Shown piece after piece: positions 36,058 to 54,379 of a stretch of DNA of 64,000 bases. Both the position numbers and the translations under genes were made by a program. Origin of the DNA: Eledone cirrhosa (lineage: Eukaryota); contig OZ024746.1 in the NCBI GenBank assembly GCA_964016885.1, forward strand, positions 23,064,001 to 23,128,000. Reading direction: 5' to 3'. The notes under the pieces were generated by a model, which had not been told where the DNA came from, ran no database searches, and saw only the letters and a list, made by a program, of their open reading frames with translations. Position 1 is the first letter of the stretch. Every line of letters starts with the position of its first letter.

Positions 36058-36251
36058 AACGAAGGAAATGCGGTAAGTAACCAGGTGGACCATAACGCAC
36101 CAAAGTACTCAATACTTAGGGTAGTAGAGTGGGTAATAGGAACGAGTAGGACCCCGACGGCTGAGCTCAAGCCGTTTCGACGGCTAATTCTGGACCCAGA
36201 ATTAGCCGTCGAAACGGCTTGAGCTCAGCCGTCGGGGTCCTACTCGTTTCT

Positions 36252-36252
<1 letters not shown>
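36058..36252 (-). mobile_element. Family A fold-back element with a perfect 53-bp stem
   Basis: Arms 36141-36193 and 36196-36248 are exact reverse complements; tail 36058-36140; (TA)n on both sides. Confidence 0.8.
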
Positions 36253-36341
<89 letters not shown>

Positions 36342-43899: not shown

Positions 43900-44098
43900 A
43901 TAGAAGCTTTCGCTGTATTTTTGACTGAAGAAACTTTACCCTGATATTGGGGTTTAGAAACCTCTAAGAAATGGAAAAAGATGAGTGTAGAGGGTTCTAA
44001 ACCCCAATGAGGCTAAATTTTCTTTAGTCAAAAATACGGCGAAAGCTTCTATTTTTAATTTCAAACTCGCTCGCTGCTTCAAAACAAACTTACTTGAT
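43900..44098 (+). mobile_element. Family D fold-back PLE-like end
   Basis: Inverted arms ~43900-43965 and ~43988-44051; ATGAGGCT...GAAAGCTTC resembles a decayed hammerhead with palindromic AAGCTT stem III. Confidence 0.55.
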
Positions 44099-44351
44099 AT
44101 ATAGATACAGTCGCGGACTGGGGCTAAAAATATTGGTTGCCAGGAGATGAAGGGGGCCCACCTACATATAGAATGTTATCATTTAATTTTTATAATGAAT
44201 AAATAACATTTTCAAAAAATACATAAGTAGAAACAAAACAGTGCAACTAAAATTTTTGCGGAAAAATATCTTACCTTCTCCAATAAAAAAAATATGTATT
44301 TTGTGAAATCCAGAGACTTTCAATAATGACCAGAAGTAGACCCTGAATAAT

Positions 44352-44737
44352 AATAACTCTAGGAACGCCTTGAACGACACCACATCGTTTTAACTTTTAT
44401 TTTGAAACTAGGTTTATAATTATCAATTTTCATTATACTTTTGTAGCTGTCTCGGTGGCCTACTTGGACGGTGGTAATCCTGGTCTGAATTTCAATACTG
44501 GTCGGGCGTAGGGTTCCCGGTAGACCTTTTCAGTTTTTTCTATTGGTTTTAAAATAAAAACTGAAAAAAGGTTACCAGGATTGAACCTAAGGACAGGATC
44601 TTCACCGGTTCTAGTACTTACCGCTAGACCACAGAGACAACTACGAAAAGTTTTATGAAAATATATACATATAAACCTACTTTCAAATTTTCAAACCAAA
44701 GTGTTGTGGTGTCGTTCATGTCTTTCTTAATGTTATT
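44352..44737. mobile_element. Palindromic MITE/foldback element with tRNA-like arms
   Basis: TGAACGACACCACA (44371) / TGTGGTGTCGTTCA (44705) plus further matching blocks; minus arm has GTGGTCTAGCGG and GGTTCAATCC boxes. Confidence 0.7.
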
Positions 44738-45030
44738 GCTCCATTGAACGGTTGGGCCCTAGCCAAGATATCCCATGTTAGTGAGTGTTCAATGTTGGTT
44801 AATTTAAGGTTTTTAATGAGCCTAGCTAGAGATGTCGAACATCTGTTGTTAGGGTCTCGGAAGGAAAAAGAGTGTGCGTTATAGCGTACCTTAAAAGGGT
44901 TAGAGCCGATATAGGAGCTGGTATGCGAAGCAGTTTTAACTGTGCACCTATAAACTATATTGGGTGTCAGGCAATGTCCATTTAGTGGTCATGCATTAGG
45001 GTAACGGCAGTTGCAGTTACTTCTGCGGTT
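44738..45030 (-). pseudogene. Penelope-like element GIY-YIG endonuclease fragment
   Basis: Manual translation NCNCRYPNA*PLNGHCLTPNIVYRCTVKTASHTSSYIGSNPFKVRYNAHSFSF...STSLARLIKNLK...LTWDILARAQPF; Cys-rich linker plus IVY...YIG. Confidence 0.9.
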
Positions 45031-45239
45031 AGTGAGAGTAGGTTATTTAAACTAAGCGGTTGGTCAGTGCTAGAAGGATTAGATGGGGGAGGTGTGCTAC
45101 TAGAGTAAGTATTGGTGTAGTGGCGTGGTGTATTTGATGGGGGTGGTGATACCGCGGTGTGGGAGTTATACTGTCTTAGTTTATGATGGTTACTGAATGC
45201 GATGTGGCTAGCAGTAACAGCACCTATACAGGGAACCTT

Positions 45240-45910
45240 ATAGTTTATATAAGATTGGTATTTCTCATTACTACCCTTATCCCAAAATTTTATTTTCCTT
45301 CGTTTTTAACAACATTCTTTAATAACATCTAATTCTTATTTATCACATCCATATGAATTAATATAAATTTATCCCTATAAGTATACCTATCAATTAATTT
45401 AATTTCTTGTTATAGATCTAGATTCCTTCTGGTTTAAATAAGATTGGTATTTCTCACTAATACCCTTACCCTAAAATTTTACTTTCCTTCGTTTTTAACA
45501 TTATTCTTTAATAACATCAAATTTGCGTGTACCCTTCACCGGCTTGACCTCCTTTCATCCCCAAAGTATTCTTTTCATTCAAAGTATTCTTTCCATTCAA
45601 AACATAAGTCTGCACTCCTCTACCCCTAAATTAAATTTCTACTACTACTATTCTATCAACTTGACCTCTAACTACTTTTCTATTAGTCAATTCAAAACCT
45701 GTTCCCAAACAGACCTATTATATTAAATCTTTGTTGGGTTTTTTTTTCAATAAACAAATCTCATCATTTCTGAAGACAGCATGTATATGTGAAGGTATGT
45801 ATATTTCCTCTGATAGTTTGTAATATTTTTACATAGATCTATATGATATACATACCAACACACATATATATCCTAGAAACGATCGTAAAATGCTGAATTT
45901 TTTAATATAA
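45240..45910 (+). mobile_element. PLE 3' region/pseudo-LTR, inverted relative to the GIY-YIG fragment
   Basis: Internal ~85-bp direct duplication (~45249 and ~45438); ends with the hammerhead at 45765-45892. Confidence 0.6.
45765..45892 (+). ncRNA. Putative type I hammerhead ribozyme with long stem II insertion
   Basis: CATTT-CTGAAGA-(~100 nt)-GAAA-CGATCG-TA-AAATG; perfect 5-bp stem I, palindromic stem III, GUA site; base of stem II is imperfect. Confidence 0.6.
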
Positions 45911-45918
45911 GGAACTTG

Positions 45919-46040
45919 TTCGAAACGGCCTGAGCTCTGCCGTCGGGGTCATACTTGTTCCTATTACCCACTCTACTACCCTAAGTATTGAGTACTTTGG
46001 TGCGTTATGGTCCATCTGGTTCCTTACCACATTTCCTTCG

Positions 46041-46043
<3 letters not shown>
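45919..46043 (+). mobile_element. Family A element, 5'-truncated, no inversion
   Basis: TCGAAACGGCCTGAGCTCTGCCGTCGGGGTC plus full tail to (TA)n. Confidence 0.75.
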
Positions 46044-46105
<62 letters not shown>

Positions 46106-46106
46106 C

Positions 46107-46153
<47 letters not shown>

Positions 46154-46222
46154 TATATATATATATATACATATATATATACATATATATATATACATAT
46201 ATATATACATATATATATATAC

Positions 46223-46287
<65 letters not shown>

Positions 46288-46288
46288 C

Positions 46289-46351
<63 letters not shown>

Positions 46352-46352
46352 C

Positions 46353-46383
<31 letters not shown>

Positions 46384-46425
46384 CATATATACATATATAT
46401 ATACATATATTTATATATATTTATA

Positions 46426-46494
<69 letters not shown>

Positions 46495-46626
46495 TTATAT
46501 GTAGGAGGTGAGTTTTATTGTAGTACAATAAAGCAATGCAGATATCGGATAAGAAGCACTCTACAGTTTGTGGGACTGGAGTATGCATAATATAAGATCA
46601 AAAGATGGTTAAAGGAGTTCCATATA

Positions 46627-46693
46627 TTTTATTATGCGCATTTCAAAAACAAACATCATCAAACAATAATATTTGCGTTTTCATCAGATAAAA
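46627..46693 (-). ncRNA. Minimal type I hammerhead ribozyme
   Basis: Reverse complement of 46802-46868; catalytic core intact. Confidence 0.8.
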
Positions 46694-46801
46694 CAGGAGA
46701 ACATGATATGAAGGCTAAAAAACACTTGTTGATAGTGCATATGTTGATTTAAAACTGCACTATCAACAAGTGTTTTTTAGCCTTCATATCATGTTCTCCT
46801 G

Positions 46802-46868
46802 TTTTATCTGATGAAAACGCAAATATTATTGTTTGATAATGTTTGTTTTTGAAATGCGCATAATAAAA
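46802..46868 (+). ncRNA. Minimal type I hammerhead ribozyme
   Basis: TTTTAT-CTGATGA-AAACGCAAATATTAT(tgtttg)ATAATGTTTGTTTTT-GAAA-TGCGCA-TA-ATAAAA; 6-bp stem I, long stem II, palindromic TGCGCA stem III, AUA site. Confidence 0.8.
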
Positions 46869-46935
46869 TATATGGAACTCCTTTAACCATCTTTTGATCT
46901 TATATTATATATTTATATATATATATATTTATATA

Positions 46936-46966
<31 letters not shown>

Positions 46967-46967
46967 T

Positions 46968-47039
<72 letters not shown>

Positions 47040-47053
47040 CATATATATATATT

Positions 47054-47110
<57 letters not shown>

Positions 47111-47111
47111 T

Positions 47112-47180
<69 letters not shown>

Positions 47181-47181
47181 T

Positions 47182-47238
<57 letters not shown>

Positions 47239-47239
47239 T

Positions 47240-47274
<35 letters not shown>

Positions 47275-47279
<5 letters not shown>

Positions 47280-47920
47280 TTTGAGAATAAACTCTCAGTC
47301 ATTTACAATAATTAAGCTCCAGGAAGGCTCTCTTCAGAGCAGTTAATACATTTAAAGTGTACGATAAACACGAAATGTGTTTACATTGCAACAGACAAAG
47401 TTAGCTATTAATGAAATAAACTAATAAAAGTGAATACAATTTGTCTGTCTCGATATAAGTCATTGTACGAGCTGATCCTTAATCCTGCATAAGCGGCTGT
47501 TATTTCTAGCACCGTGAATGTGGGATAGCTAGTTCTGGCCTGCCTACCCACGTGTAGTCAGTCTTGCAAAATTTTTGATGTGTGATATACTAATCTTACT
47601 GGATTCCTGTTGATAAGCACAGAAGATATGGGTATTTCACTCTTTTATTTCTATCCCATTTCGATTCTCTTTATTTTTCAATTCACATTCCACCGTTGCG
47701 AAACTTATTTGGGTTTCGAGGTTCAAATTCGTCTACAGAACAGGTTTGAATTTTGAAATTTAAATATGTCCAGGAATCATGGCTGTTGCCAATATAATAT
47801 TGTCTTTATTGACTTATATCGAGACAGACAAATTGTATTCACTTTTATTAGTTTATTTCATTAATAGCTAACTTTGTCTGTTGCAATGTAAACACATTTC
47901 GTGTTTATCGTACACTTTAA

Positions 47921-47925
<5 letters not shown>
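47275..47925 (-). mobile_element. PLE 3' fragment with ~115-bp inverted duplication
   Basis: 47347-47462 is the reverse complement of ~47810-47925; minus strand has an ISKFKPVL*-like ORF end and a decayed CTGAAGA-GAG...CTC-AAAA hammerhead. Confidence 0.6.
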
Positions 47926-47965
<40 letters not shown>

Positions 47966-47966
<1 letters not shown>

Positions 47967-48395
47967 GGTGGCTGCCAACTCGTTTTCGAGTACGGCCACT
48001 ACTTTATATCCATGTAGGAGAACCCCTAGGGATGCGCTGAACGAGTGTGACTTTTTAGTCCAGCCAGCGATTTGAAAACTCTGGTACAAACACTACACTT
48101 TTGACAATTATTGACTCATAGTGCTGGGCCCATGGTACCATCTGACGGCAAGTGCAGAGAGATCTCCAGATATAAAGCAATGCCTGTGCCGTGAAGCTTT
48201 TATAGTGAGCAAAGGCACTGCACAAAGCCAGTCCCACTCTCTTAACCAAGATGATATGTACCAAAAAGAAGAACAAGTCAACATCATTGGATACCATCAG
48301 GGTTGCAGGTGTTATATCAGAGTTTTCCTTCTCCTAGAATTCTGCTTTGACAAAGGCTAAGGAGTCATCTCTCCCGGTGATTTTGGATGGCCATT
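47966..48395. repeat. Unclassified dispersed repeat; second diverged copy at ~49102-49385
   Basis: Shared blocks GCCTGTGC..GAAGCTTTT, TCCCACTCTC, CCAAAAAGAA, TATATCAGAG; both start right after (TA)n. Confidence 0.55.
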
Positions 48396-48426
48396 GACTC
48401 TTATGTATATATATATACATATATAT

Positions 48427-48497
<71 letters not shown>

Positions 48498-48559
48498 CAT
48501 ATATATATATATATATATAGTAATAATAATAAATTTGAAGACTAAAATCTGTTATTTTA

Positions 48560-48644
<85 letters not shown>

Positions 48645-48651
<7 letters not shown>

Positions 48652-48998
48652 AGATCAAAAGATGGTTAAAAGAGTTCCATGTATTTTATTATGCGCATTT
48701 CAAAAACAAATATCATCATGCAATAACATTTGTGTTTTCATCAGATAAAATAGGAAGACATGATATGAAGGTTAAAATACACTTGTGAATAGTGCAGTTT
48801 TAAATCAACATATGAAAACACAAATGTTATTGCATGATGATATTTGTTTTTGAAATGCGAATAATAAAATACATGGAACTCTTTTAACCATCTTTTGTTC
48901 TTATATATTATGTATACTCCAGTCCTACAAACTGTAGAGTGCTTCTTATCCGATATCTGCATTGCTTTATTGTACTACAATAAAACTCACCTCCTACA
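48645..48998. mobile_element. PLE end (family E), second insertion: inverted pseudo-LTR plus tailed copy on plus strand
   Basis: Minus arm 48645-48812; plus arm 48812-48998 with AATAAA at 48979; homologous to 46500-46907. Confidence 0.85.
48683..48751 (-). ncRNA. Minimal type I hammerhead ribozyme
   Basis: ATTTTAT-CTGATGA-AAACACAAATGTTATTGCATGATGATATTTGTTTTT-GAAA-TGCGCA-TA-ATAAAAT. Confidence 0.8.
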
Positions 48999-49020
48999 TA
49001 TATATATATATGTATACATA

Positions 49021-49103
<83 letters not shown>

Positions 49104-49874
49104 GGCTGCATCTCCATTTCGAGTAATGCCATCGCTTCATACTTTAGCACGAACATCACAGACGTGGCTTTCTAGTCCTGCTAGGGACTTGCCTATGCAT
49201 CGCAAAACATTTTACATATGAAGTGCTGCCTGTGCTTGAAGCTTTTTTTAAGTGAGGAAAGGCTTTGTACGAGGCTAATCCCACTCTCTGAACATCGAAT
49301 GGATTTGCCCAAAAAGAAAAACTGTTCTACATCTTTGGATGCAGATGAAGTCGCAGCTTTTATATCAGAGGACTAGAAGTCTCTCGCTCCACACAAAAAA
49401 AATTATATGTATATACATATACACACACGACTGGCTTTCAAGCAATTTCCTTCAACCAAATACTACTCACAGCATTGATCAACATAAAGCTACAGTAAAT
49501 TACACTTTTCCAATATACAATGCAGTGGAATTGAACCCGAAACCCCGTGGTTGCAAACGAACTCCTTAACCACACAGTCATGACTGCCCCAATATTTTTC
49601 ATTATCTTTGTTTCTTTCTCTTGAAAACCAGTATCATCTCTTAAGCAAATATATCAAAATATATATTTCATTTTCTATGATTATATACTGTATTATATTA
49701 TATATGATATACTATATTATATCATATATTTTATATTCCCATTGATGAAATGCCAGGCAATATATAAAGATTGCTGCGGTTGCTATTTAGACAATAAAAG
49801 ATTTACAAACAGTCTGTAAACTATTTGACAAACTGTCAGACAACTCGAGAATGTATACAATGTATTGTGATGTT

Positions 49875-50105
49875 TGTTGTGTGATGTAGTTTTAGCTATG
49901 TCTGCTCTGATGTGATGTTTTAAGTATGTCTCCTCTGTCGTGTACTTTCGAGGTGCATCTTCTCTGTGGTTTAGTTTGAAGTAGGTCTGCTGATTGATGT
50001 ATTTTTAATTATGGCTACAGTGTGGTTCTGTTTTAAGTAGTTCTGATGTGTGGAGTAATTTTAAGTATGTCTTCTGTGTGGTTTAGTTTTAACTATATCT
50101 TCTCT
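49875..50105. repeat. Degenerate ~26-29-bp minisatellite, left half (continues at 53890-54105)
   Basis: GTGGTGTAGTTTTAAGTATGTCTTCTCT-like units on both sides of the RTE insertion. Confidence 0.8.
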
Positions 50106-53100
50106 TCAAAGGGTAGAAGAACTGATAAGAGTCAACGGCCTTCCAAAAATGTGTAAATATGTATATATACATGTACATATATATGTGTATGTATATACGT
50201 GTGCATATGCCTGGGGTGTCAGGGAGGGGCATGTACCTCTGTAGGGGGTGGGGGCTAGCCATGCCCTTTTCAGGACAGCTCGTCCTGCATTGGATCCCAC
50301 CTGACACTCAGCTCTCACCTGTGGCCCCAAGAAGCTGTAGCATGCGACAGCGGCCACACCCTGGTAAACCGCCTTGGCTGGCGGGCCGAACCAGATTGAG
50401 GGTATCCGGACGGGTCTGAAACCTCCTGGTGAGTTAGATAGGGGATGCCTTCCCCTGCATGCGAAGACTGGACCCGGCGGAGTGAGTGGAGGAGGACAAC
50501 ATCGTCCCAACTGTCACAAAGGCGGCGACAGCAAGCGGTGTGGAGCGCTAGGGCACGGCAAGGCACTACAGACGTCGTGGCCATCCACTGCAGCCAAGGA
50601 AGTCCCTGGTCGTGACGGTCCTCTGTACCACCGGATTCTGGCTTCTGCGGCCGAGTGAGTGGGACCGTCACTTGCACTGGCCCTCCCACTATAAACCTTT
50701 CCCGCACAGGTTTCTTCTTTAGCGTGCACTCCCAAAGCCCTGCGGCGATAGGCAAGAGGCGGAGGTAACAGGTGGAGGTAACCTCTGGGAGTTGCCAGTC
50801 TCAAACTCACACGTGGGCGGCCTGGATGCGCAAGTCGTTCTCCTCCTGACCCTGGGATGACAGAGGAGATCAGGCATTCCACCGGGGGACTGAGCAGCCC
50901 TTTTCAGGGGAGCACTGCTCACCCTCGCACGAGGAGAGGGGCGATAAAAGCAGCCCTGACCAAATGCTCGTCCCACATAAAGCTAGCCAGTCTACCGCGG
51001 CTAGCGGTTTTACCCTTGCAAGCGGTCGAAACCAACATAATAGAAAGAAGAACTTGATTCTTGACGCATGGAATATGCGCACCCTCATGGATAGGGAAAC
51101 CTCCTTGAGGCCAGAGAGAAGAACTGCCCTCATAGCAAGCGAATTAGCTCGCTACCGGATCTACATAGCCGCCCTCAGCGAGACTAGACTTGCCGAAGAA
51201 GGATCAGTAGCAGAGCCGAAAGGAGGCTACAGCTTCTTCTGGAAGGACAATGCAAATGACGAGGACAGAATCCACGGGGTAGGCCTGGCCATCAGGACTT
51301 CACTCTGCAAGCAGCTACCAGACCTCCCAACACCTGCGAGTGAGCGGCTGATGAAGCTCCGCTTCCCCTCGACCCATCTCGGCATGTCATAGTCACCAGC
51401 AGCGATGAAGCAAAGGACACTTTCTACGAGGAACTCAACGCACTCATCCCCCAAGCGATAAACTCATCCTACTGGGAGACTTCAGCGCAAGAGTCGGGTC
51501 TGACAGCAGCAACTGGAGAGGCGTGCTGGGACCTCATGGCACAGGGAAGCTGAACTCTAACGGCCTCATACTGTTGAGTTTCTGCGCCGAGAACGACCTC
51601 ACCATCACCAGCACACTGTTCCGCCAGGCAGACAAGTTCAAGACGACATGGATGCACCCCAGATCCAAACAATGGCATCTGATTGACGTTGCCATATGCC
51701 ACAGGAGGGACATATGTGACGTCAGAATCACCAGGGCCATGCGTGGTGCAGAGTGTTGGACCCACCATCGCCTTGTCAGGATCATCCTGTCACTGCACAT
51801 CACCCCGACGTATCGCAAGACTCCGAAAGTCTGTAGGCCAGCTTTCGACGTCGCACGACTCAAGCAGCCAGAGCATCGTGATGCATTCGCGGAAGACCTG
51901 GAGGGCCGGATGACTGCCCATGGACCACTGACCGGATCCCCAACTCAACAGTGGGACCACTTCAGGTCGCTGGTGACAGAGTCAGCCAAGGCAACCATCG
52001 GGCCGAGGAAGAGAATCCACCAGGACTGGTTTGATGAAAACAATGAGCGCATCAGACAACTCCTGGACGAGAAGAGGAGGGCTTTCATTGAGTGGCAGAA
52101 TGACAACTCCTCCACCTCGAAGCGCGACCGCTTCAAGCACCTCCAGAGTCAGACCCAAGCAGTGCTACGCAGAATGCAGGACAAGTGGTGGGAAAAGAAG
52201 GCCGAAGAAGTCGAGATATACGCTGACACAAAGAACTCCAAGATGTTCTTCAGCGCCATCGGGGATGTCTACGGACCCTCCAAGCCTGTCACCACACTGC
52301 TGCTGTCTACTGACGGCTCGATCCTGCTGAAGGAGAAGAGCAGCATCAACTAGAGGTGGAGAGAGAGCACTTCAGCAACCTGCTCAACAGGCCCTCCACT
52401 GTCGACCCTTCCGCCCTCGACCAGGTCCCACAGAAGCCCGTAGTCGGCATCCTCGCCGCAGCACGATCGACATGATCTTCTCTGTACACCAGGTACAGGA
52501 GAAGTGTGTTGAGCAGAACATGGACCTCTTTGCCATCTTCATGGACTTGACGAAGGCATTCGACACTGTCAACAGGGAACCCCTCTGGTCGATCCTGTTG
52601 AAGTTTGGATGCCCGACAAAGTTTGTGAACCTGATACGGCAATTCCATGACGACATGACCGAGCAGGTGCGCTCGGGCGGAGAAGCATCAGAGCCATTCG
52701 GAATCACCAACGGCGTCAAGCAAAGATGCGTGCTGGCTCCCGTCTTCTTCAACCTGCGTGCTCAGTAATGCCGTCAGGGACCTCGAGCACGGAGTGTATC
52801 TGCGATACAGACTGGACGGCTCCCTGTTTGACCTGCGGCGCCTGACGGCCAAGACAAGGACCATGCAGAGGATCGTCCTGGAGGCACGTTTTGCTGACGA
52901 CTGTGCCCTCATGGCCCACAGGGAGTCTGACCTCCAACTCATCGTCAACAAGTTCGCGGAGGCCTCCTGCCTCTTCGGTCTCACAATTAACTTTGGAAAG
53001 ACTGAGGTCCTATTCCAGCCTGGACCTGCCTCCGTCGCCCACCCTCCTTCCATCTCCATCTGAGGCACCCAATTAAAGACGGTGAACGACTTCAAGTATC

Positions 53101-53889
53101 TCGGCAGTGTCATCAGCAGCGATGGAAGCCTCGACAAGGAGATAAACGCCAGAATCTGCAAGGCCAGTCAAGCCTTCGGCCGCCTAAGGACACGCGTCCT
53201 GAACCAGCACATCAGGCAGTCCACCAAGCTCAAGGTGTACAGGGATGTTGTTCTCACCAGCCTGCTCTACGGATGTGATACATGGACCCTGTACAGAAGG
53301 CACCTGAAGCAGCTGGAACGGTTCCACATGCGCAGCCTGCGGTCAATCATGAACATCAAATGGCAGGACAAGGTCTCCAACATCGAAGTTCTTGACATGG
53401 CTGAGACAACCAGTGTCGAAGCTATGGTACTGAAGGGCCAACTTCGATGGGTGGGACATATCATCCGGATGGACGTTCACGGGCTTCCGAAGCAACTGAT
53501 GTATGGGGAACTCTGTTCGGCGAAACGAAAGCGGGACAGGCCTCACAAGAGGTTCAAAGACTGCATGAAGTCCAGTATCAACAACACTGGAATCGCGCCA
53601 AAACAACTCGAGTCTCATGCTCAGGACAGGACTGAGTGGTGAGCCCTTACCAGACGCGCCAAAGACTCTTTTGAAGAGAAGAGATGGCAGAGGTCACTGA
53701 GGCCCGTGAAAGGAGGAGAAAGGCGTCAACAGCTGCCCCAAGCGACTGTGGTCTCTTCCCCTGCCCCCACTGTCCCCGGACCTGCAAGTCAAGGATCGGC
53801 CTCCACAGCCACCTTCGTGCCCATGGCAGACGGGAACTAAAGTAAAGAAGATGTCATCATCGTTTACGATGGACAACCAAGAAGAAGAA
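50106..53889 (+). mobile_element. Near full-length RTE-clade (BovB-like) LINE with 11-bp TSD
   Basis: TSD ATATCTTCTCT at 50095-50105 and 53890-53900; GC-rich 5' UTR; EN, RT and C2H2 finger motifs; 3' (AAG)n tail. Confidence 0.95.
50964..53845 (+). pseudogene. RTE ORF (AP endonuclease, reverse transcriptase, C-terminal zinc finger), disrupted
   Basis: WNMRTL, AALSETR, LGDFSAR, DLTKAFDTVNR, GVKQRCVLAP, FADD, FKYLGS and CPHCPRTCKSRIGLHSHLRAH; stops at ~52351, 53061 and 53640, frameshifts and an internal deletion at ~52448. Confidence 0.95.
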
Positions 53890-54379
53890 ATATCTTCTCT
53901 GTGGTGTAGTTTTAAATATGATTACAGTGTAGTGTATGGCTACAGTGCCGTATAGTTTTAACTATGTCGGCCCTATGGTGTAGTTTTAAGAATGGCTACA
54001 GTGTGGTGTAGTTTTATCAAGGTTGACTGTGGTGTGGTGTTAGCAATGTCTTCTCTGTGGTGTAGTTTTAAGTGTGGCTACGGTGTGGTGTAGTTTTAAC
54101 AAGGTTTGTTTCTTGTATCGTCAAGTTATTATAGTCATAGGTAATATATTTCCTTTTAAAAGTTTTCTTGATCTAATTTTACTTTAATGCCAATGGTGGA
54201 ATTGCTTCTACAGTTAACGTTGAAATTATATATCTTATAAAATATTAAATAGGTTACAGGGAATATAAAAATACGTTTTACATATATTAGCGATAGCACT
54301 AGCAGAGTGTGATTCACAATAAAGGCGTATATAGACCCATATATAATGCCTATGTATGATATTTATATATAACTACTTC

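Follow-up and report, generated by a model that had tools for sequence, protein, structure and literature searches.

The two fold-back insertions described here, which lie within a 64,000-nucleotide stretch of DNA (the window) from the 3.0-Gb genome of Eledone cirrhosa, appear to be very short head-to-head insertions of the pseudo-LTR (pLTR) of an autonomous Penelope-like element (PLE) with Hydra-type motifs, likely produced by twin target-primed reverse transcription on one RNA; we give this reading a probability of about 0.75. The repeated unit is the pLTR of an autonomous, high-copy PLE of the same genome and not a stand-alone element, and because it flanks an intact reverse transcriptase (RT)-endonuclease ORF, the window holds two of thousands of PLE stubs. 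The element is a new family of a known kind of PLE, and inverted pLTRs, one-sided tails, (TA)n targeting and opposite-strand hammerhead pairs have all been described for PLEs already. As a sequence feature, the fold-backs are thus ordinary PLE biology, and their value is that of a natural experiment on the origin of PLE inversions.

Positions within the unit are given as u numbers, u1 being window position 46740 and u0 the preceding A (46739); past u165 the numbering follows a natural copy (L173), with the tail-less end at u166-176 and the tail end at u258, relative to which the variant found in insertion A is 2 nt shorter. As the initial annotation had described, both insertions, A and B, consist of a tailed and a tail-less arm joined head-to-head, and (TA)n is present at all four of their ends:

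46042..46499, no strand: (TA)n target microsatellite to the left of A, assigned from the sequence
46500..46739, minus strand: tailed arm of A, pLTR truncated at its 5' end and running from u17 up to the tail end (u258 site); the same sequence flanks the ORF in loci L171-L190
46624..46695, minus strand: hammerhead motif in the tailed arm of A, predicted cut after 46633
46738..46739, no strand: head-to-head junction of A, a 2-nt overlap common to both arms; 46739 is the u0 hotspot
46740..46915, plus strand: tail-less arm of A, pLTR from u0/u1 to the internal TA-rich site (u166-176), running into the target
46800..46871, plus strand: hammerhead motif in the tail-less arm of A, predicted cut after 46862
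46808-46814 (CUGAUGA), 46851-46854 (GAAA) and 46854-46861 (stem III), plus strand: parts of the hammerhead in the tail-less arm of A, which has an 8-bp stem I
46916..47274, no strand: (TA)n target microsatellite to the right of A
48402..48647, no strand: (TA)n target microsatellite to the left of B
48648..48813, minus strand: tail-less arm of B, from u0/u1 to the internal site
48681..48752, minus strand: hammerhead motif in the tail-less arm of B, predicted cut after 48690
48812..48998, plus strand: tailed arm of B, running from u72 up to the tail end and lacking the first core box; the arms overlap by 2 to 7 nt at the junction
48999..49101, no strand: (TA)n target microsatellite to the right of B

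The arms of A are 99% complementary over 153 nt (46587-46739 and 46756-46908), and a poly(A)-signal hexamer lies 15 nt upstream of u258.

The link to PLEs that had been drawn from the window is confirmed by the genomic context of the unit. A genome search with insertion B gave 381 candidates, of which 40 were scored, and many of these carry the same fold-back. In L026 and L029, the unit is preceded by about 1 kb of untranslated sequence and, further upstream, by an endonuclease-like frame, which is the end of an RT ORF and has 3,315 first-look candidates in the genome (another part of the ORF has 1,065). The 258-nt unit is present on both sides of the RT-endonuclease ORF, directly before it included, and the monomer of approx. 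3.5 kb is ordered pLTR, ORF, 3' region, pLTR. Two of the 20 near-full-length copies (L171-L190) have an uninterrupted frame (803 and 806 codons), and the ORF of L177 (L177:2794-5178) comprises 794 aa from its ATG, with a YRDD motif and a C-terminal IYE..YFG domain. Domains were assigned from motifs; Pfam gave no significant match for the ORF parts and their homologues, a PDB profile search with the ORF gave 0 matches, and the homologues of the ORF share 30-43% identity with it and bear no informative names. The L177 ORF also contains an insert of ~60 aa, rich in Asn, Pro and Ser, between the RT thumb and the endonuclease; most homologues are without it, and it resembles Asn-rich inserts reported in rotifer PLEs.

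The element has the single ORF for RT and a GIY-YIG-type endonuclease, the direct flanking pLTRs, the partial tandems, the inverted 5'-truncated copy and the one-end tail of a PLE, the last two of which also figure in the general PLE scheme (Craig et al. 2021, PMC8557442). Within PLEs, its motifs point to the Hydra clade. The DKT motif is found as HSDKT in the ORF and in 11 of 11 aligned proteins, the linker CNCPAKNKC fits CxCX5C, CNLC (CxxC) and CLH (CxH) are present, CCHH is absent, and no CxxC follows the first endonuclease strand in the ORF; insertion is into (TA)n and a hammerhead is present. Hydra-clade PLEs, as characterized in the relevant sections of the same work, are alike in having a single ORF for RT and a C-terminal endonuclease, with DKT, a CxCX5C linker and no CCHH, in having CxxC and CxH near the C-terminus, around conserved E and N, and in having a hammerhead near the 3' end and (TA)n insertion (PMC8557442). 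However, the monomer is longer here (Hydra elements are generally <3 kb), the tail comprises ~82-92 nt instead of 30-40 bp, and the position of the Hydra RWK motif is occupied by RWI (PMC8557442), nine of ten aligned homologues having RWK, RWR or RWE. One cephalopod Hydra family, Hydra-1_Obim, is included in the supplement of Craig et al. 2021 (PMC8557442), and the present hammerhead differs from that of Hydra-1_Obim in its long stem II and in having no stable stem III. A literature search on Hydra PLEs after 2021 gave nothing new. A reading of the element as Neptune, suggested by the Cys-rich linker, was dropped, as the motifs fit the definition of the Hydra clade.

The ends of the insertions are non-random (u0, u176 and u258), and the initial annotation's claim of (TA)n targeting is borne out on a large scale. 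Exact tailed ends (u258) running into TA repeats number at least 8,015, and exact tail-less ends (near u176) number 3,125 for one junction variant, with 0 in the reversed controls in both cases. Short-read contigs likewise have loose ends running into (TA)n, at both sites in X1 and X2 (one sample) and at u258 in X4. The sampled arms come from 70 tailed ends among the first 100 listed, 60 of these with upstream sequence of 4.5 kb, and from the first 30 listed tail-less ends, all on contig C1. The inversion is indeed stereotyped: by automatic chaining, the inverted partner of the 60 tailed ends is tail-less in 40, tailed in two, absent in 13 and unresolved in five, and inspection beyond the automatic chain gave a few further tail-less partners. 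Among 20 endonuclease-anchored long loci (a set in which L065 and L066 look like one duplicated insertion), 12 have an inverted arm, and all 12 combine one tailed with one tail-less end; thus, long ORF-bearing insertions match short ones in both ends and in the inversion. In some pairs, both arms lack a tail or both carry one, and either arm may be the complete one. The fixed unit of ~168 bp that had been proposed stands in so far as the start at u0 is fixed, whereas 168 bp is the length of one of two arm types and arms extend up to 3.5 kb. Short copies occur as head-to-head pairs or singly, and no head-to-tail arrays of the unit were seen in the sampled loci. A sister family (L281-L310, 916 exact matches) shares the start motif and both 3' ends but has no poly(A)-signal hexamer; because of this, and because A-tails are absent at tailed ends, the idea that a poly(A) site causes the u258 end is weakened.

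Evidence of a common template comes from comparing the two arms of an insertion. At polymorphic positions, the arms differ at 18 of 1,057 positions in 58 short pairs and at 13 of 783 in 36 long pairs, i.e., by 1.7% within an insertion vs. 26.6% in random pairs. Moreover, 33 of 34 pairs are concordant at u0, where either both arms stop or both pass; three of the 22 pairs in which both stop (L195, L217, and L138) are read-through arms of diverged subfamilies, and two pairs in which both pass (L232 and L243) may be separate insertions, which leaves the concordance unchanged. Shared haplotype and shared stopping or passing argue for twin target-primed reverse transcription on one RNA. Random RNA dimers, formed via stem III, were rejected as the source of the two arms since the arms share a haplotype, although dimers of RNAs from one locus are not rejected by the haplotype data. 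As most arm pairs overlap, either strand displacement or two RNAs from one locus would be needed, and the data do not separate the two. Seven arms start at u160-169, vs. about two expected; this cluster sits in a TA-rich tract and may have originated by microhomology.

Long perfect hairpins beside long (TA)n runs are hard to assemble, and TA flanks resemble the target sites of Tc1/mariner elements. Nonetheless, fold-back chimeras of the assembly or a hairpin DNA transposon (MITE) residing in microsatellites can be given almost no weight: the arms are unequal and differ by 1.3% at non-polymorphic sites, the junctions are varied and carry added bases, and both ends are present in independent short-read contigs. 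Both explanations are refuted by the link to the ORF together with the variety of the junctions.

One haplotype in both arms would also be expected if a single cDNA folded on a short palindrome and copied itself, or if an antisense RNA primed itself. The earlier model for PLE inversions, self-priming on an antisense template, was indeed proposed for head-to-head PLE palindromes (Arkhipova et al. 2013), and in the fetched loci 18 junctions form perfect palindromes with four shared bases at u0. However, the tail-less arm extends further 5' than the tailed arm in both A and B (u0 vs. u17 and u72), the arms have no overlap at all in L235, L247, L209, and L242, and the reverse order of arm reach is also seen (L202 and L219). 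Arms that do not overlap, and tail-less arms that are longer at the 5' end, exclude simple snap-back as a general model, which makes it an improbable account of the family, even if it could be the source of some perfect palindromes.

Apart from the two 3' ends, twin priming on one RNA has to accommodate the hotspot at u0, where 54 of 155 sampled arms start (u-4..+4), the other 5' ends being random over kilobases. Exact arms that begin at u0 next to a non-template base number at least 4,205, and at least 1,672 read through. The base before u0 is G in 43 of the first 100 arms listed (hand count), compared with 10 of 100 and five of 36 at two control sites (Fisher p 1e-7 and 0.002, respectively). 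This cap signal is moderate, because in ten of the 43 cases the G could have been templated by the partner arm and because, in the 31 arms of fetched loci whose partner ends elsewhere, the base is G in 8 and a templated-looking C in 10 (A 7, T 6). The start motif is kept in the sister family while its flanks diverge. The u0 base also falls within what we take to be an initiator-like motif. An internal promoter is known from the Penelope element of D. virilis (Schostak 2008), and in LINE-1 an untemplated G is taken as a cap signature, according to a review. Position u0 is likely a capped transcription start; a bacterial promoter scan stayed at chance level and has no bearing on this. Of nine long arms that reach the upstream pLTR, one stops at u0 and eight pass it (p 0.065 vs. 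short arms, in a small, score-selected sample of ORF-linked 5' pLTRs), which is not predicted by a simple linear capped RNA. Passing u0 could result from a circle made by the hammerhead, from read-through of a tandem, or from a template jump that links the cap with the 3' pLTR.

The hammerhead itself is well preserved. The core is intact in three of the four arms of A and B (CUGAUGA, GAAA, palindromic stem III, and AUA triplet), in agreement with the three cores initially annotated; in the tailed arm of B, the first core box is absent and the stem III palindrome is broken. The motif comprises an 8-bp stem I, a stem II of ~16 bp closed by A-U, and an 8-nt self-complementary stem III (computed self-duplex -10.5 kcal/mol), with a predicted cut after u123. 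Among 118 arms sampled by position, 110 have an intact core, which upholds the assignment to minimal type I hammerheads, and 99 have both the core and the stem III palindrome. All seven common variants of stem II keep pairing, as had been observed between the copies in the window, and loop positions vary freely. The closing pair (10.1-11.1) is A-U in 101 of 112 arms and G.U in 11 of 112, the latter representing an intermediate subfamily. The canonical G10.1-C11.1 pair is absent in the window's family and is G-C in the 916 exact matches of the sister family; the window's family has lost the canonical closing pair that the sister family kept. It is therefore reasonable to regard the hammerhead as well formed, with pairing conserved beyond chance, and self-cleavage is predicted; the stem II and closing-pair evidence is support, not proof, because most of the changes affect one side only and occur in related copies. 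Scoring with covariance models, which had been suggested as a check, did not help, since Rfam gave no hammerhead model at E<=1 in 44000-52000, the output being microsatellite and hairpin noise. The common variants of stem II (L173 u76-u102) are mostly A/G on the sense strand, which could be CpG decay or retrotransposed A-to-I editing.

The minimal hammerheads of metazoan PLEs are similar in their type I core, enlarged stem II and palindromic stem III, but stem II is ~16 bp here, no base is bulged after A9, and the G10.1-C11.1 pair, conserved there, is A-U in the window's subfamily (PMC4209133). In the same study, single minimal motifs were inactive and dimers weakly active in vitro, and opposite-strand pairs of minimal hammerheads 100-700 bp apart were ascribed to truncated PLEs (Cervera and de la Pena 2014, PMC4209133). 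The initial annotation expected a transcript through A to carry both a ribozyme and a long dsRNA stem. The stem is there (153 bp), and the computed fold is a single hairpin of -243.5 kcal/mol that would bury the hammerhead; the presence of the ribozyme sequence in this transcript thus does not imply a ribozyme that can fold. Thousands of such ready-made long hairpins in the genome might be sources of dsRNA where they are transcribed.

The hammerhead cut site sets neither end of the stubs. Arms starting at the cut site (u124) number 102, compared with 36 at a control site and at least 4,205 at u0; of 100 cut-site arms listed, 25 read GC, and most of these 25 are small deletions or palindromic joints. 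With an excess of about two-fold over a single control site, the hammerhead cut is at most weak as a 5' boundary. This bears on the conclusion of the initial annotation, which took the unit for a separate, non-coding, ribozyme-processed element of ~168 bp, non-autonomous and retrozyme-like. Such an element would agree with the excess of u0 starts (at least 4,205) over first-look candidates for the two ORF parts (1,065 and 3,315) and with the intact hammerhead core in most sampled arms, and a preprint argues that PLE pLTRs gave rise to animal retrozymes (Li et al. 2026). Non-LTR retrozymes also share the non-coding, pLTR-derived sequence with a type I hammerhead, but theirs are arranged head-to-tail with a hammerhead per unit, whereas the units here are head-to-head and end away from the cut site (Li et al. 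2026). Neither head-to-tail repeats in the sampled loci nor a unit bounded by ribozyme cleavage was found; the ends lie at u0 and u176/u258, not at the cut after u123, the unit is the pLTR of a coding element, and long insertions end in the same way. A separate element of this kind is therefore very improbable.

A more serious competitor retains twin priming and assigns the two size classes to two RNA templates, i.e., a short capped RNA (u0 to ~u258, with one hammerhead, uncut) would give rise to the stubs, and a circular monomer, cut out by dimeric hammerheads at the two pLTRs, to the long and more-than-unit insertions. The two clean classes of arm pairs, the passage of u0 by most long arms in the upstream pLTR, the scarcity of arms starting at the hammerhead cut site, the self-complementarity of stem III and the poly(A)-signal hexamer ahead of u258 are all in line with this, and templates of circular form have been suggested before (Cervera and de la Pena 2014, PMC4209133). 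However, the contrast of one in nine is not significant, tailed ends are without A-tails, the sister family ends at the same site without the hexamer, and passage of u0 would follow just as well if tandem arrays were read through or if the template switched between the cap and the 3' pLTR. Two distinct templates are thus possible, with the odds against them.

Under the preferred reading, twin priming on one RNA, an internal promoter would drive transcription of the element RNA, whose capped start would lie at u0, and the element protein would cut both strands of a (TA)n tract. One DNA end would then prime at u258 and the other near u176, on the same pLTR copy of the RNA. When this is the 5' pLTR, both cDNAs would end by run-off at the cap, so that the arms could not exceed 258 and 176 nt, whereas priming on the 3' pLTR would give long, randomly truncated arms. 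The cDNA 3' ends would be joined by short microhomology, often with trimming of one arm (u17 in A, u72 in B), and arms starting at u160-169 might have been blocked there by the second primer. The hammerhead would be carried along uncut, and it likely serves the full-length RNA, through dimer cleavage, and not the ends of stubs. A stricter version, which we put forward tentatively, is that twin priming is programmed in PLEs: one protein complex would prime both ends of a double-strand cut at two fixed sites of a single pLTR, the inversion would be the normal product, and the RNA would be capped for stubs and circular, through the hammerhead, for the coding, more-than-unit copies. If true, programmed twin priming together with the circle would give the PLE hammerhead its missing function.

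Twin priming as such was described for LINE-1, in which two target ends reportedly prime on one RNA to give an inverted 5' segment with small junction indels. Two ends on one RNA, as well as the untemplated G at capped starts, are common to both systems. By contrast, the second priming site is fixed here, overlap between the arms is usual, a poly(A) tail is absent, and inversion predominates (at least 42 of 60), whereas in LINE-1 it concerns a minority of insertions; the LINE-1 model is that of Ostertag and Kazazian 2001, as cited in PMC4859970. Biochemical support for priming from both ends comes from work in which a purified PLE protein cut and extended both strands in vitro and two internal starts defined the tail (Frangieh 2024, PMC11167929). 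The element concerned, the Poseidon element PAc of Anolis, is like the present case in that two internal RT starts bound the tail, both target strands are cut and extended and targets are AT-rich, and uncleaved RNA was its main template; however, the start sites here precede the ATG, within the 5' untranslated part, and microhomology to the target is clear at the u176 site (PMC11167929). The PAc study gives no explanation for the inverted arm (PMC11167929). Neither twin priming nor cap run-off, nor population evidence for such a mechanism, was found for PLEs in the literature searched, the coverage of which leaves aside older subscription papers; queries on twin priming and on template switching in Penelope each yielded a single off-topic review.

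The origin of the tandem and inverted structures of PLEs was named as unresolved by Craig et al. 2021 (PMC8557442). Within this context, thousands of young insertions fix two priming sites, a likely capped start and the use of a single template, and the same insertions show that the hammerhead has no role in setting the ends. The fixed u0 start is the most informative part, and the family may serve as a test bed for the formation of PLE inversions, with intact ORFs at hand for an in vitro test.

Several other repeats deserve mention, with coordinates in the window unless a locus is named. A second, unrelated family of the same design (670-893, 36059-36253, and 45920-46041) is also head-to-head, with tailed and tail-less arms in (TA)n, and has a hammerhead-like 3' half (GAAAC, stem III with a palindromic loop, and GUC); it was matched in 63 fetched loci, with the 5' core box in L302 alone, in deviant form. 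At L290:1390-1560 (minus strand), another fold-back belongs to a third hammerhead family, which is more diverged and differs in its stem II. Between A and B, a 580-bp element with perfect 116-bp terminal inverted repeats (47347-47926) adjoins (TA)n, has matches in four fetched records, and is likely a non-autonomous DNA transposon. Another dispersed repeat is represented by two 73%-identical copies (48170-48322 and 49216-49370), each following a (TA)n run, and is matched in about 20 fetched records. Finally, the 4-kb stretch at 50001-54000 has a GC content of 54%, compared with 30-38% in the window.
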